The notes: generated from the letters alone by a model not told the origin. DNA of 64,000 bases from Escherichia phage vB_EcoM_G9062 (NC_054920.1), one strand, 5' to 3'. Shown: positions 323 to 9,059, counted from the first letter of the stretch. Numbers and translations: made by a program.

Positions 323-853
<531 letters not shown>

Positions 854-3729: not shown

Positions 3730-3830
3730 AGTATTTCCTTAGGTTAATTGAGATTTAAAATCCGTAGGAGTATAATACTCTATCGTCAAATTATAGGCTC
3801 ATAATATCTCAATCATGAGCCTGCGTAAAC

Positions 3831-4094
3831 TTATTTCATATTATTGAAATATTCTTCTGCGATTTCGTCGTTATCATGGTAAACTTTAGAAGACAGTTTA
3901 ACATAACCTTCTGCTGTGAACATATTAATCACAACTTTTACAGTATACCACTGACCGTCTTCATTACCCATTACTGCGTAAGTTTCAAACATCGGATGAT
4001 CAGGACCGATAACTTTAATATCATTCACTGTACGACCGAAATCTTCTGAAACGCATTTCATAAAGAAGTTGAACAGTTCGCCGTAATTATCCAT
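3831..4094 (-). CDS. Hypothetical protein, about 87 aa (ORF extends to 4214, but the internal ATG at 4094 has a GGAGA ribosome-binding site)
   Basis: ORF; internal start MDNYGELFNFF... preceded by a Shine-Dalgarno-like GGAGA on the coding strand. Confidence 0.45.
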   Translation of the reverse strand: MDNYGELFNFFMKCVSEDFGRTVNDIKVIGPDHPMFETYAVMGNEDGQWYTVKVVINMFTAEGYVKLSSKVYHDNDEIAEEYFNNMK

Positions 4095-4288
4095 TTCATT
4101 CTCCAAGTTGTTTTCTGTATCAGTAGTTGATAGTTGTATAGTACCATGGAAGAACAGAGATGTAAACAGTTTTGTGAAAAAATTTTTAGGGAATTCTAGG
4201 GCAGGGATGGGCAATTAAAGGATAGGTAATATATTATAAAGGGTATAAACTAAATGATGCCTAGAGAGGTCCAGAAAGGCCTAGATAC

Positions 4289-4308
4289 CAAAAAGCCCTA
4301 TCATTTAG
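4289..4308 (-). terminator. Terminator hairpin downstream of the 187-aa CTS protein gene
   Basis: CCCTATC-ATTTA-GATAGGG hairpin followed by a U-run on the minus-strand transcript. Confidence 0.55.
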
Positions 4309-4322
4309 ATAGGGATTTAAAA

Positions 4323-4886
4323 TTATTTACCTAGTTTACTTATTATAGCTTCTGCAGCAGCTTTTAGCTTAGATGCAGTGTTAATACGATTTTTAATTTC
4401 AGTATACGCATCGCCAAGAACATCAAGGCTATCAGAATAAACACTTACACTATTGCGTTCGCTATTTGAAATAGAACCTTTAGTTTTGCGGTCAAAATCG
4501 GTGTACACGTCTTGAAGATCGCGGGCTGCCTTCTTTGCATCATCCAATGCATCAAGAGCTTTATTCAAAGCATTAACGTATTTTTTAGTGTCGAACATAT
4601 TCTTAGAAATTTTAACAGGTGCGCGTTCAGGAGTAGCTAACACAGATTTAGGAACCTGAGCGCCAGATGCCAATTTCTTAGAAATTTTGAAAAATGCTTT
4701 ATTGAATTTATTTTCTTGACTCATTGTAAAAGAACTATTATCGATGTTGTACATTTCAATAGCTTTAGCTTTCCACTTAAGAAAATCGCCGCGGTCTTTT
4801 GGGTCCAATTGGAAGAATACTTTAGTAAGATCTGCTTCAGATGGTAATTTTGCTGCTTCGGTTAAAAATTCGGCATAGGTTTTCAT
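4323..4886 (-). CDS. Internal-protein-like capsid-targeted protein, 187 aa
   Basis: N-terminus MKTYAEFLTEA resembles the T4 internal-protein capsid targeting sequence (MKTYQEFIAE, cleaved by gp21 after L/I-x-E); followed by a terminator hairpin. Confidence 0.65.
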   Translation of the reverse strand: MKTYAEFLTEAAKLPSEADLTKVFFQLDPKDRGDFLKWKAKAIEMYNIDNSSFTMSQENKFNKAFFKISKKLASGAQVPKSVLATPERAPVKISKNMFDTKKYVNALNKALDALDDAKKAARDLQDVYTDFDRKTKGSISNSERNSVSVYSDSLDVLGDAYTEIKNRINTASKLKAAAEAIISKLGK

Positions 4887-4974
4887 TTAAAATCCTTGAA
4901 ATAATTTATCGGTTGGTTATTAATTATTTATTACTTTGTTACTATCCGTAACAGCGTTATCCGAGTGATTCAAA

Positions 4975-5007
4975 CTAAAAAGCCCCAACCTTTCGGTCGG
5001 GGCTAAG
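4975..5007 (-). terminator. Rho-independent terminator (copy 1 of an identical 33-bp element)
   Basis: Minus-strand RNA AGCCCCGACC-GAAA-GGUUGGGGCU (GNRA tetraloop, 10-bp stem with one G-U) followed by UUUUUAG. Confidence 0.65.
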
Positions 5008-5011
5008 AATG

Positions 5012-5485
5012 TCATTTGATTTGTTTAGCAGACCAAATGCGGTCTTTAATAATTTTTTGGATGTCTTCAACATACTCAAGAGAGTGAACATGTGGATTAT
5101 CTTTGAAACTATAAGCACGGGCTAACTTTTGGCCTTCGGTTTTGATTACTAAAAGCTCTTTAAGGATAGCTTCATATTTGGAGATAATTCCTTTAACAAT
5201 ATTTTTCTCTTGTGTGACTTTAGGATCTTCTTTAGGAGCAGGTTTACCTGAAGCCTTTGCAAAAGCAGCTCCAGTAGCAACTAAACTTTTCCAAGCCATA
5301 CTAACTGCATTCCCTGTAAATCCTTCGGCTTTCATATCACGAGCAAATTGGAATCGTGATTCATCGGAAGCATCTTTATAGGAATATTTACCCGCGGCAA
5401 TGGCAGCTTTTGCAACAGCTTGAATTTCAGTGCTAGATGCTTCATTTAACACCGCTTCATTTAAAAATTGAGTATATGATTTCAT
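5012..5485 (-). CDS. Internal-protein-like capsid-targeted protein, 157 aa
   Basis: N-terminus MKSYTQFLNEA (CTS-like, LNE-A putative cleavage site); flanked by two identical terminator hairpins. Confidence 0.6.
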   Translation of the reverse strand: MKSYTQFLNEAVLNEASSTEIQAVAKAAIAAGKYSYKDASDESRFQFARDMKAEGFTGNAVSMAWKSLVATGAAFAKASGKPAPKEDPKVTQEKNIVKGIISKYEAILKELLVIKTEGQKLARAYSFKDNPHVHSLEYVEDIQKIIKDRIWSAKQIK

Positions 5486-5529
5486 CTTATTTCCTGTTTT
5501 AATTCGGGGTTTTAATATACTTATTTATA

Positions 5530-5562
5530 CTAAAAAGCCCCAACCTTTCGGTCGGGGCTAAG
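5530..5562 (-). terminator. Rho-independent terminator (copy 2 of the identical 33-bp element), ending the tRNA/stable-RNA transcript
   Basis: Same 33-bp sequence CTAAAAAGCCCCAACCTTTCGGTCGGGGCTAAG as at 4975-5007. Confidence 0.65.
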
Positions 5563-5876
5563 CCTTGCGGCAACCTTGTCGGGGTTCCACCTGCTAAGGC
5601 AAGTGTTTGTACGAAACGCCGGGATTCGAACCCGGTTATTAAGCAGTTGACGCTACTCAATATTTTTTAAAAGGCCATATCTCGACCATATCCGAACGTT
5701 CCGTCAAAAACGCTACTCGGCTTACGGCAAAGATATTTCCTCGAATCGATAATTCGGTGCGCCGTTTCTGCTGTGATATAAGGGGACATTAACAAAACAT
5801 AAAGATTTATTAATACCAGTCCTTAAACAGGGAACATCAGTCCGACGACTTGCCGGTAGCGACCCGGCTTCTTGTC
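5563..5876 (-). ncRNA. Candidate small stable RNA(s) between tRNA-Arg and the terminator (possible counterpart of the T4 stable RNA species)
   Basis: No ORF; contains a tRNA-like T-arm (CCGGGTTCGAATCCCGG on the minus strand) and a palindrome TCGAATTATCGATTCGA; a position where T4 has small stable RNAs as I recall. Confidence 0.3.
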
Positions 5877-5952
5877 TGGTCGAGGCAGTAGGGATCGAAC
5901 CTACGACCCAGGACTTAGAAGGTCCTTGCTCTTCCTTCTGAGCTATGCCTCG
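5877..5952 (-). tRNA. tRNA-Arg (anticodon TCT), CCA encoded
   Basis: Manual fold: acceptor CGAGGCA/TGCCTCG, D-stem GCTC/GAGC, anticodon loop CTTCTAA, T-loop TTCGATC. Confidence 0.85.
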
Positions 5953-5956
5953 TATT

Positions 5957-6031
5957 TGGCGGACGTGATAGGATTCGAACCTATAACCAATCGCTTAACA
6001 GGCGATCGCTCTGCCATTGAGCTACACATCC
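5957..6031 (-). tRNA. tRNA-Asn (anticodon GTT), CCA encoded
   Basis: Manual fold: acceptor GGATGTG/CACGTCC (one G-U), D-stem GCTC/GAGC, anticodon stem ATCGC/GCGAT with loop CTGTTAA, T-arm ATAGG-TTCGAAT-CCTAT. Confidence 0.75.
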
Positions 6032-6035
6032 AAAT

Positions 6036-6122
6036 TGGTGGGGAGTGGTGGAGTCGAACCACCCGAGTCGCAATGACAATGAATTTACAGTCCACACCGC
6101 TACCTCTACGGGATAACTCCCC
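6036..6122 (-). tRNA. Class II tRNA with long variable arm, most likely tRNA-Tyr (anticodon GTA)
   Basis: Acceptor GGGGAGT/ACTCCCC, anticodon loop CTGTAAA on a stem with two G-U pairs, variable-arm hairpin GTC-ATTGC-GAC, T-arm GGTGG-TTCGACT-CCACC; D-arm is non-canonical. Confidence 0.6.
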
Positions 6123-6131
6123 AAATTAATT

Positions 6132-6206
6132 TGGTGGCCCTGGGTGGAATTGAACCACCATCTGGCGATTATGAGTCGCTTGCTTGAACCTTCCAGCTAC
6201 AGGGCC
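6132..6206 (-). tRNA. tRNA with CAT anticodon (Ile2 lysidine-type or Met)
   Basis: Acceptor GGCCCTG/CAGGGCC, anticodon loop CTCATAA, T-arm GGTGG-TTCAATT-CCACC; T4 tRNA-Ile carries a CAU-derived anticodon as I recall. Confidence 0.7.
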
Positions 6207-6207
6207 T

Positions 6208-6283
6208 TGGTGCTGATTGACGGAATCGAACCGCCGATCTTCTCATTACAAGTGAGTTGCTCTACCTACTGAGCTAAATCAGC
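6208..6283 (-). tRNA. tRNA-Thr (anticodon TGT)
   Basis: Acceptor GCTGATT/AATCAGC, D-stem GCTC/GAGC, anticodon stem ACTCA/TGAGA with loop CTTGTAA. Confidence 0.85.
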
Positions 6284-6288
6284 AAAAC

Positions 6289-6378
6289 TGGCGGAGGCGA
6301 TAGGATTTGAACCTATGAGTCGCCGGAGCGACTGCCGGTTTTCAAGACCGGTGCATTAAACCACTCTGCCACGCCTCC
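6289..6378 (-). tRNA. tRNA-Ser (anticodon TGA), class II
   Basis: Sense strand GGAGGCGTGGCAGAGTGG...CCGGTCTTGAAAACCGG...TAGGTTCAAATCCTATCGCCTCC matches T4 tRNA-Ser from memory. Confidence 0.9.
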
Positions 6379-6380
6379 AG

Positions 6381-6455
6381 TCTCCGTGGCAGGATTTGAA
6401 CCTACGACATTCTGCTCCCAAAGCAGACGCTCTACCAAACTGGGCTACACGGAGT
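6381..6455 (-). tRNA. tRNA-Pro (anticodon TGG), CCA not encoded
   Basis: Acceptor CTCCGTG/CACGGAG, anticodon stem TCTGC/GCAGA with loop TTTGGGA; lies directly upstream of tRNA-Ser like the T4 Pro-Ser dimeric precursor. Confidence 0.85.
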
Positions 6456-6464
6456 AAATTAAAT

Positions 6465-6538
<74 letters not shown>

Positions 6539-6543
6539 AAATT

Positions 6544-6630
6544 TGGTGCGAGAAGTGGGACTCGAACCCACAAGGAAATCATTCCGCAGCATTTTAAGTG
6601 CTGTGCCTTTACCAATTTGGCCATTCTCGC
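6544..6630 (-). tRNA. tRNA-Leu (anticodon TAA), class II
   Basis: Acceptor GCGAGAA/TTCTCGC, anticodon loop CTTAAAA, T-arm GTGGG-TTCGAGT-CCCAC; resembles T4 tRNA-Leu. Confidence 0.85.
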
Positions 6631-6631
6631 G

Positions 6632-6704
6632 CTGGGAATAAAGGACTCGAACCTTTGCATCCTGGAATCAAAATCCAGTGCCTTACCAACTTGGCTAATT
6701 CCCA
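6632..6704 (-). tRNA. tRNA-Gln (anticodon TTG), CCA not encoded
   Basis: Sense strand begins TGGGAATTAGCCAAGTTGGTAAGGCACTGGATTTTGATTCCAG...; anticodon loop TTTTGAT; abuts tRNA-Leu like the T4 Gln-Leu dimer. Confidence 0.85.
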
Positions 6705-7675: not shown

Positions 7676-7694
7676 TTTATTCTCCTCAGTAGTA

Positions 7695-7722
7695 GATAGG
7701 GTAATAGTATCACTACCCTATC
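7695..7722 (-). repeat. Conserved intergenic hairpin module, copy A
   Basis: GATAGGGTA-ATAGTATCAC-TACCCTATC (9-bp stem) between the CTS gene and the small membrane protein gene. Confidence 0.7.
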
Positions 7723-7733
7723 TAAAAGTAAAC

Positions 7734-7967
7734 TTATTTTTTACGAAAAATTGATTTATTTTCTGCTGCCCATTTTTCAATAACTGCAGCAGGACCAGTA
7801 ACAACAATTTTATCACCGTAATCTTCTGCGGCGAGTTGACCGAAATTATCTAATGCATCACGAAGAACTCCATGAGGCATTTCACCCATTTTATCTTTCT
7901 TGCCAGTGTAAATAAACTCAACTTTTACATCAGCAGTTTCAGCAATAAATTCTTGGTAAGTTTTCAT
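7734..7967 (-). CDS. Internal-protein-like capsid-targeted protein (about 77 aa from the MKTYQEFIAE start; ORF extends to 7979)
   Basis: Contains MKTYQEFIAE, the T4 IPI-type capsid targeting sequence, then a divergent body; sits in the hyperplastic locus next to 57B. Confidence 0.65.
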   Translation of the reverse strand: MKTYQEFIAETADVKVEFIYTGKKDKMGEMPHGVLRDALDNFGQLAAEDYGDKIVVTGPAAVIEKWAAENKSIFRKK

Positions 7968-7992
7968 TTTGATTTCCATTTGGTTTTGTTTT

Positions 7993-8055
7993 GATAGGGT
8001 AATAGTATCACAACTAAAACCCTATGTAAACAACTTTGTGAAATTATTTTAAATC
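7993..8055 (-). repeat. Conserved intergenic module, copy B (hairpin plus shared 3-prime UTR/stop region)
   Basis: GATAGGGTAATAGTATCAC...CCCTAT followed by TGTAAACAACTTTGTGAAATTATTTTAAATC, which on the minus strand encodes the C-terminal DLK-stop of the 8044-8301 gene. Confidence 0.7.
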
Positions 8056-8301
8056 TTCTAATCGTTTCTTCATCTTAGAACCATTTTTAGCAATTTCTCC
8101 TGCATCGGAGCATAATGCTAAAAGTGCTTTAACTTTAGTTTGGTCTCCTTTAAAAGATGAAGGATCGACCGCAGCAGCAAGTTCTTTAATACGAGAGAAA
8201 AGACGCTCAGCTTCAGCTAAAGCCATTCCAAGCTTTACTTCCATACCGTGGGAAGATTCAGTGATAGTAGTTTTTGTAGCAAACTCTTTGAAAGTTTTCA
8301 T
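8044..8301 (-). CDS. Internal-protein-like capsid-targeted protein, 85 aa
   Basis: N-terminus MKTFKEFATKTTITE (CTS-like); C-terminus ...DLK-stop lies inside a repeated 3-prime module shared with 57B. Confidence 0.6.
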   Translation of the reverse strand: MKTFKEFATKTTITESSHGMEVKLGMALAEAERLFSRIKELAAAVDPSSFKGDQTKVKALLALCSDAGEIAKNGSKMKKRLEDLK

Positions 8302-8323
8302 TTTTATTTTCCTAATTAATTTT

Positions 8324-9059
<736 letters not shown>

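Follow-up and report, generated by a model that had tools for sequence, protein, structure and literature searches.

In Escherichia phage vB_EcoM_G9062, two open reading frames (ORFs) coding for 187 and 157 amino acids follow the tRNA cluster, between the homologs of rnaC and e.8, where the annotation of T4 leaves 285 bp free of genes. This locus, located in the 64,000-nucleotide stretch of NC_054920.1 that was analysed here (the window; positions are counted from its first letter), raises the question of what the two ORFs encode and how they came to occupy their place. The initial annotation had described them as genes resembling those of the T4 internal proteins (Ip), with N termini similar to a capsid-targeting sequence (CTS) and with L-x-E cleavage motifs. 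Its coordinates proved correct, with both ORFs on the minus strand, which carries all genes of the region, but, as transcription runs, both are downstream of the tRNA cluster and not upstream of it. From the analysis reported here, we consider it probable that both genes encode unnamed internal proteins that are packaged in the capsid, each located on a small cassette inserted in the terminator of the tRNA/rnaC transcription unit. The window belongs to a Tequatrovirus; three phages of this genus, Shigella phage vB_SsoM_JK08, Yersinia phage PYps35T, and Escherichia phage a15, match the region at 99.9% identity.

The CTS of the T4 internal protein IPIII has been dissected by mutagenesis: targeting depends on residues 4 and 7 and processing on residues 8 and 10, foreign proteins can be packaged by means of no more than its first ten residues, and the prohead protease gp21 cleaves after the Glu of an L/I-x-E motif (PMC9026906). 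In both ORFs of the window, MKTYAEFLTE in the 187-aa protein and MKSYTQFLNE in the 157-aa protein, we could recognize Tyr4 and Phe7, in agreement with the targeting determinants at these positions (Tyr/Phe and Phe), as well as Leu8 and Glu10 (MKTYQEFIAE in the T4 reference). The gp21 motif at residues 8 to 10 is L-T-E in the 187-aa protein, where it is the sole L-x-E of the entire sequence (MKTYAEFLTE/AA, the slash marking the predicted cut), and L-N-E in the 157-aa protein, which presents it again, as a second predicted site, at residues 13 to 15. A search of all six reading frames of the window for the pattern MK[TS][YF].[EQ]F[LIA].E found three occurrences, always at the start of an ORF, against none in 200 shuffles, which bears out the CTS-like N termini and cleavage motifs of the initial annotation. 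Furthermore, the leader is retained in homologs whose remaining protein has diverged. In the family of the 187-aa protein, this is the case for a metagenomic protein (P0026; 31% identity to the window protein; leader MITFNEFLNE-SEMINE) and for a 189-aa protein of Yersinia phage fHe-Yen9-01 (24% identity; leader MLQYNEFLKE-SLISE); in the family of the 157-aa protein, for homologs of fHe-Yen9-01 (P0009; ~55% identity; leader MLEYSEFLKE) and of a Klebsiella Jiaodavirus (P0010; ~50% identity; leader MKFKEFLAE), whose similarity extends over the N-terminal ~60%. Judged by its sequence, the leader of both ORFs is a genuine CTS-type leader. A 15-nt tandem duplication in the leader of the 157-aa gene (TTAAATGAAGC..., window 5441-5470) gives two consecutive L-N-E-A protease motifs; in several homologs the motif is not doubled, and P0004 and P0010 carry it once, immediately ahead of the conserved (A/Q)SS start; across the family the 4- to 5-residue indel of the leader always keeps an L-x-E directly before that start.

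Evidence from virions concerns the 157-aa family. The protein g140 of Yersinia phage fD1, which shares 98% identity with the 157-aa protein, is listed as phage-particle-associated in purified virions analysed with tandem mass spectrometry coupled to liquid chromatography (PMC8309999, Table S3); since the preparation was impure, we regard this association as supportive and not decisive. One member of the family, from a Klebsiella phage, is named 'Internal head protein' in UniRef, and both genes are labelled 'hypothetical' in every sampled GenBank record. Packaging of the 157-aa protein appears very likely to us, and that of the 187-aa protein quite likely.

Both ORFs are real genes. The ratio of nonsynonymous to synonymous substitution rates (dN/dS), computed with the homologs of fD1, Shigella phage CT01, and Mosigvirus PhAPEC2, is 0.035 to 0.095 for the 157-aa gene and 0.05 to 0.09 for the 187-aa gene, comparable in both cases to that of the neighbouring e.6 and e.8; each gene has a Shine-Dalgarno (SD) sequence and a terminator, and the 187-aa and 157-aa proteins are conserved in 163 and 510 records, respectively, of the phage collection. 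It follows from these values, signals, and conservation that the ORFs are genes, and the reading according to which they are not, their leader-like starts having arisen by chance, deserves practically no credence: the lack of a Pfam or NCBIfam family and the merely hypothetical annotation would fit it, but low dN/dS over 157 to 187 codons, the SD sequences and terminators in place, the conservation in so many genomes, the detection of peptides of the fD1 homolog, and the absence of the leader motif from the shuffles all oppose it.

Both precursors have an isoelectric point (pI) of 9.4, and the predicted mature proteins are basic (pI ~9.5); IPII and IPIII are basic as well. The AlphaFold models are all-alpha. 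That of the 157-aa protein, of moderate confidence (predicted local distance difference test, pLDDT, 73), presents a leader helix, a small helical N-terminal domain, a Pro/Lys linker, and a long helical hairpin; that of the 187-aa protein, which is poor (pLDDT 60), presents a helical N-terminal domain, a disordered linker at residues 77 to 98, and a long C-terminal helical hairpin. The two models have the same layout, namely, leader helix, small helical domain, Pro/Lys-rich linker, and long helical hairpin. Two natural variants of the 187-aa gene were also observed. In CT01 (L007, 2501-2989), an in-frame deletion of 25 residues between two KISK repeats removes the predicted disordered linker; in RB69 (L013, 2004-2566), a frameshift splits the gene into ORF149c and ORF148c. 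In a metagenomic chimeric ORF with 13 members (P0024), residues 96 to 122 of the 187-aa protein are fused in frame to the C-terminal part of NudE, which implies that in some phages a deletion runs from the 187-aa gene through e.8 and e.2 to e.6 into nudE.

The region between denV and e, where the annotation of T4 places ipII and ipIII, is empty in the window (denV starts at 273 and e stops at 323, with no gene in between), as the initial annotation had noted, and it had proposed that the two genes could be relocated or replaced internal protein genes. Relocation finds no support, because BLASTP against T4 IPII and IPIII and against IpIII and IpIV of PST aligns only the first 11 to 12 residues; the similarity is limited to the leader, and the full-length identity that would have left only the position unusual was likewise not found. 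The 157-aa ORF and PST IpIV show no similarity, so that their equal length is coincidental. Replacement in the strict sense fails as well, since in phage UGKSEcP1 the 187-aa gene coexists with a gene annotated as internal virion protein in the denV-e interval; because UGKSEcP1 is occupied at both positions, the rnaC-e.8 locus and the denV-e locus vary independently. The same empty denV-e junction is found in ~243 records.

The two proteins are not paralogs of each other either: both match phrog_2280 over their full length, but BLASTP and profile-profile comparison align only their first 11 to 13 residues. The cluster phrog_2280, annotated as 'unknown function', is evidently a mixed one. A C-terminal 'TPDLY' region that seemed to be shared by distant members of the two families was not supported by BLASTP. 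Searches of both proteins in Pfam and NCBIfam returned only sub-threshold noise, and Foldseek against PDB and BFVD returned only matches to their own families, with no functional hint. A PDB profile match to a designer PPR protein (E = 3.5e-7) contained no significant single stretch and was treated as an artefact of summing over repeats. In the profile, PDB, and BFVD searches, neither protein showed similarity of sequence or fold to any characterised inhibitor of type IV restriction.

The second part of our reading concerns the signals that surround the genes (Table 1). The 33-nt element CTTAGCCCCGACCGAAAGGTTGGGGCTTTTTAG is present in two exact copies, terminator 1 and terminator 2, and nowhere else in the window. 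Each copy forms a hairpin of 10 bp capped by a GAAA loop, with U5 after it (-20.3 and -20.4 kcal/mol; z = -3.9 and -4.7), none of 200 shuffles folds as well, and the homology between them reaches 40 nt at 95%. The initial annotation had described the hairpin and its U-run properly but had assigned, in its title, one identical copy to the end of each gene; the two are in fact placed on either side of the 157-aa gene, and what follows the 187-aa gene is another hairpin, of 7 bp, terminator 3. The hairpin of terminator 1 is identical in T4 and PST and is annotated as 'pot. terminator' in the T4 record X03016. In terminator 3, the end GGGCTTTTT with the 3' flank GGTATCTAGGCCTTTC matches what comes after terminator 1 in T4.

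A perfect T4 late promoter, TATAAATA, is placed between terminator 1 and the 157-aa gene, and terminator 2 is followed by TTTGAATC in the place where terminator 1 has TATAAATA. The 187-aa gene is preceded by the near-consensus variant AATAAATA, a putative late promoter whose ATAAATA core is kept in PhAPEC2, RB69, and CT01; the same variant is also found 35 nt before a gene-15-like late gene of the window. The junction CTTTTT(A/G)GTATAAATA is common to fD1 and a Klebsiella Jiaodavirus, and in both of them the U-tract of the hairpin, TATAAATA, and a gene of the 157-aa family follow one another in the same arrangement. In fHe-Yen9-01, a terminator and then TATAAATA precede the gene of the 189-aa protein. 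A scan of IMG/VR for the terminator retrieved five loci, too few for statistics.

Table 1. Position of the two genes, of their signals, and of the surrounding features in the window (minus strand read from higher to lower coordinates)
Feature	Position	Strand	Description
denV	ends at 273 in plus coordinates (gene start)	-	next gene is e
e	323-817	-	followed by nudE and homologs of e.2-e.6
e.8	3831-4094	-	next in plus order is the 187-aa ORF
Early-type promoter of e.8	4138-4166	-	TTTACA-N17-TACTAT; downstream border of the locus
Terminator 3	4290-4314 (stem 4296-4314)	-	7-bp stem CCCTATC/GATAGGG, -12.7 kcal/mol; weaker, after the 187-aa gene
Block absent from T4, T2, T6, and PST	4290-5531	-	1,242 bp; from the alignment of e.8 to tRNA-Arg (window, T4, PST) and blastn junctions
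187-aa gene	4323-4886	-	MKTYAEFLTEA...; phrog_2280; SD sequence present
Putative near-consensus late promoter	4925-4932	-	AATAAATA (7/8); ATG of the 187-aa gene 38 nt further on
Terminator 2	4975-5007 (stem-loop 4981-5004)	-	exact 33-nt repeat, 555 bp downstream of terminator 1
157-aa gene	5012-5485	-	MKSYTQFLNEA...; phrog_2280; SD sequence present
Leader/propeptide of the 157-aa protein	5441-5485	-	MKSYTQFLNE/AVLNE/A (predicted cuts); two L-N-E-A motifs
Perfect T4 late promoter	5522-5529	-	TATAAATA; 2 nt past the U-tract of terminator 1; ATG of the 157-aa gene 36 nt further on
Terminator 1	5530-5562 (stem-loop 5536-5559)	-	GAAA loop and U-tract; conserved, ends the tRNA/rnaD/rnaC transcription unit
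rnaC homolog	~5610-5749	-	with rnaD directly upstream of terminator 1; mapped from the T4 annotation by alignment
rnaD homolog	~5756-5875	-	mapped as rnaC
Ten tRNAs	5877-6704	-	followed by trna.2-.4
ip6	7734-7967	-	
ip5	8044-8301	-	followed by 57B

With respect to T4, 1,242 bases are inserted within the U-tract of terminator 1, immediately following GGGGCTTTTT; this block closes with GGGCTTTTT of terminator 3, and the T4 sequence GGTATCTAGGCCTTTC then resumes. The block is made up of a 555-bp cassette with the 157-aa gene (4977-5531) and a 687-bp cassette with the 187-aa gene (4290-4976), and the spacings of the repeats, 555 and 687, agree with this division. The alignment and blastn place all junctions at the hairpin, at GGG(G)CTTTTT. 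The comparison with T-even genomes revealed that both genes are missing in T4, T2, T6, and PST; furthermore, fD1 has the 157-aa gene only, CT01 and RB69 (in the latter as the frameshifted copy) have the 187-aa gene only, and the window, JK08, and Mosigvirus PhAPEC2 have both, as do the BASEL phages WilhelmHis and Paracelsus. In the phage collection, 758 records match the region, and at least 126 have the two genes contiguous. As expected of T-even internal proteins, the genes are thus polymorphic in presence and absence among close relatives. Of the duplication or insertion of a module that had been suggested for the locus, the second stands, in that insertions or deletions fall exactly at the terminator in relatives, whereas a duplication of the gene module does not, because the two genes are unrelated and what is duplicated is the terminator. 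The comparison of these genomes supports the notion that the repeated terminator marks the boundaries of the cassettes and that the locus is modular.

The two genes differ in their history. Between the window and PhAPEC2, the synonymous divergence (dS) of the 187-aa cassette is 0.18 against 1.4 to 1.6 for its neighbours, which indicates a recent transfer between genera. For the 157-aa gene, dS is 1.56, with 1.39 for the neighbouring e.6, and in distant genera (Mosigvirus and Jiaodavirus) the slot that follows the tRNA cluster likewise holds this family. Since the slot is the same in Jiaodavirus and dS is like that of e.6, the 157-aa gene was probably ancestral at this slot and lost in T4, rather than moved.

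It is possible to propose a mechanism in which late RNA polymerase would start at TATAAATA, after terminator 1, and transcribe the 157-aa gene, and in which the 187-aa gene would be expressed from AATAAATA, by read-through of terminator 2, or by both routes. The leader MK(T/S)Y..FL.E, as its match to the CTS of T4 IPIII suggests, would dock the precursors on the scaffolding core of the prohead, where gp21 would cut after Glu10, a second cut after Glu15 being probable in the 157-aa protein. The predicted N terminus of the 187-aa protein after the Glu10 cut is AAKLPSEADLTK, and that of the mature 157-aa protein would be ASSTEIQAVAK or AVLNEASSTEIQAVAK. The basic mature proteins, of ~19.6 kDa (187-aa) and ~15.6 kDa (157-aa), would stay in the head with the DNA. 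By analogy with known internal proteins, they may then be injected with the DNA, most likely to neutralise a host defence that acts before phage gene expression, and their target would most probably be a modification-dependent (type IV) restriction enzyme, as for T4 Ip1, Ip2, and Ip3 and for Bas37_0260. The cassettes would be gained, lost, and exchanged through recombination within the shared terminator sequence, since four occupancy states exist and the junctions all lie at the hairpin.

Some observations weigh against this reading. The fD1 preparation in which g140 was detected also held DenV, lysozyme e, NudE, and 672 host proteins, and literature searches by locus tags and for T4-like virion proteomes found no virion data on the 187-aa protein. 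Cleavage of both proteins is predicted from the motif rather than observed. Selection on both genes is purifying, and not diversifying as it often is in proteins engaged in an arms race; the sequence and fold searches gave no hint of function, with the model of the 187-aa protein being poor; the 187-aa gene is devoid of a perfect late promoter; and neither gene is found at one of the two recognised Ip loci.

Among the alternatives, the one that survives best, although we judge it unlikely, holds that the two proteins are packaged by means of their CTS but have a structural or morphogenetic role, being abundant, basic, DNA- or core-associated substitutes for IPIII and IPII and not inhibitors of defence. 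The phage is indeed without ipII and ipIII, both proteins are basic, the 187-aa protein is close to IPIII in size (187 versus 193 aa), and strong purifying selection fits a housekeeping function; in T4, moreover, the loss of IPIII slows head assembly and lowers the burst size (PMC9026906), and the lysines of internal proteins contact DNA phosphates in the head (PMC3012670). However, both genes are dispensable in nature, as T4, T2, T6, and PST do without either of them, and the coexistence seen in UGKSEcP1 makes their occupancy independent of the denV-e locus. IPIII itself, furthermore, is a GmrSD inhibitor (PMC12373910), so that the two roles are not exclusive.

Less probable still is the alternative that the proteins are late but unpackaged and that their leader is a non-functional by-product of recombination between the starts of ip-type genes. 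The DNA around the start codons does form a repeat family, ~40 nt that include the SD sequence and the first codons (4855-4896, 5454-5495, and 7936-7977; 64 to 74% identity), and both the impurity of the fD1 preparation and the lack of evidence of processing or packaging for the 187-aa protein would be in line with it. Against a by-product speak the conservation of residues 4, 7, 8, and 10 in homologs of 24 to 31% identity, the indel in the leader of the 157-aa family, which still leaves an L-x-E directly before the mature start, and the fact that ten CTS residues are enough for packaging in T4 (PMC9026906).

The closest known relatives in kind are the T-even internal proteins. The likeness consists of the 10-residue N-terminal leader, with Tyr/Phe4, Phe7, Leu/Ile8, and Glu10, and of the fact that the proteins are small, non-essential, variable in occupancy among relatives, and mutually dissimilar beyond the leader. 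Different from IPI, IPII, IPIII, and IpIV to IpVI, with which they share no homology beyond the leader, the window proteins are encoded at a third locus, from the rnaC terminator to e.8, instead of the ipI or denV-e locus; they are unnamed in databases, and their packaging, processing, and injection are predictions. The position of an Ip locus is a habit of the family and not a functional requirement. We regard the two proteins as unrelated, CTS-bearing internal-protein candidates at this third locus, and as such as candidate additions to a known kind of protein.

Ip1, Ip2, and Ip3 each inhibit one GmrSD variant and share only the leader; the study that tested them, and then Ip4 to Ip10 without finding further targets (ten ip genes), speaks of 'the two Ip loci' (PMC12373910). 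The leaders of the two window proteins do not occur in the supplementary text of that study. Bas37_0260, a CTS protein encoded by one of the two genes at the ipI locus of phage Bas37, inhibits McrBC (bioRxiv 10.1101/2025.11.20.689424), so that the targets of CTS proteins among type IV systems extend beyond GmrSD. Like the window proteins, it is non-homologous, has been recognised recently, and was identified through this leader; different from them, it belongs to another locus and its function has been proven experimentally. By analogy, an anti-defence role of the window proteins is plausible, and the two make good candidates, although unproven ones, for new anti-defence proteins that are injected.

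The arrangement of the locus recalls the promoter-early stem-loop (PeSL) cassettes, through which modules are shuffled in T4-like phages (Arbiol 2010; Comeau 2014, PMC4122927). In both cases a stem-loop terminator abuts a promoter, an SD sequence, and a start codon, repeated copies flank variable ORFs, and the junctions of the indels between relatives fall in the element. However, the promoter of the window locus is of the late type, TATAAATA, and not sigma-70-like and early, a promoter scan having found no early-type promoter after the stem-loop at this locus, and the repeated unit is the terminator of the tRNA operon itself. The early-type PeSL element is present in the same window before ip5, ip6, and e.8. 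In particular, a 71-nt repeat in which a stem-loop overlaps the early promoter GTTTACA-N17-TACTAT occurs at 7691-7761, 7989-8059, and 8320-8390, preceding ip6 and ip5 and with a third copy downstream of ip6, and its promoter core also precedes e.8 as a PeSL-type element (4160-4186). From these repeats, the window holds a cassette system of the early type at the ipI locus and one of the late type at the rnaC-e.8 locus.

On more doubtful ground, it may be hypothesized that the Tevenvirinae have a third, unrecognised Ip locus where the tRNA/rnaC terminator joins e.8. This locus would be ancestral, with occupants in Tequatrovirus, Mosigvirus, and Jiaodavirus, and T4, T2, and T6 would have lost it; cassettes bounded by terminators and provided with late or late-like promoters would be swapped there by recombination inside the terminator, and the two proteins would be injected inhibitors of defences without a known phage antagonist, such as the active GmrSD groups unaffected by Ip1 to Ip10. 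This extended form is a tentative proposal.

Further features of the region differ from T4. The tRNA cluster contains ten genes (Arg, Asn, Tyr, Met, Thr, Ser, Pro, Gly, Leu, and Gln), without the homing endonuclease gene segB and without tRNA-Ile, whereas in T4 the tRNAs number eight, and segB separates Arg from Ile. The 'tRNA-???' called by ARAGORN at 5609-5704 is really the homolog of rnaC, a tRNA-like RNA (species 1 RNA); neither rnaC nor rnaD has an Rfam family. Between the e.6 and e.8 homologs, e.7 is missing (window 3730-3830); in relatives, this slot holds ORF130 (PST) or frd.3-like and RB69ORF146c-like genes (Mosigvirus) and is thus another variable position. The denV-e spacer (264-318), which includes the early-type denV promoter, gives matches of 42 to 55 nt in unannotated stretches of other Escherichia phages and of Klebsiella T4-like phages, which suggests another widely shared regulatory element. 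At the ipI locus, ipI is substituted by ip6 and ip5, annotated as genes of internal head proteins.

As regards the significance of the locus, all four occupancy states are represented, and it offers a clean natural example of the gain and loss of cassettes at a terminator. Each T4 internal protein tested so far is a specific inhibitor of one type IV restriction enzyme, and for several active GmrSD variants no inhibitor is known yet. The two proteins described here, labelled 'hypothetical', are encoded by 163 and 510 sequenced phages, many of them candidates for therapy, and neither is on the Ip1 to Ip10 list, of which IPI to IpVI were covered by the sequence comparison. Sharing the same packaging leader, being widespread, and being absent from that list, they are ready-made candidates for host-range determinants.

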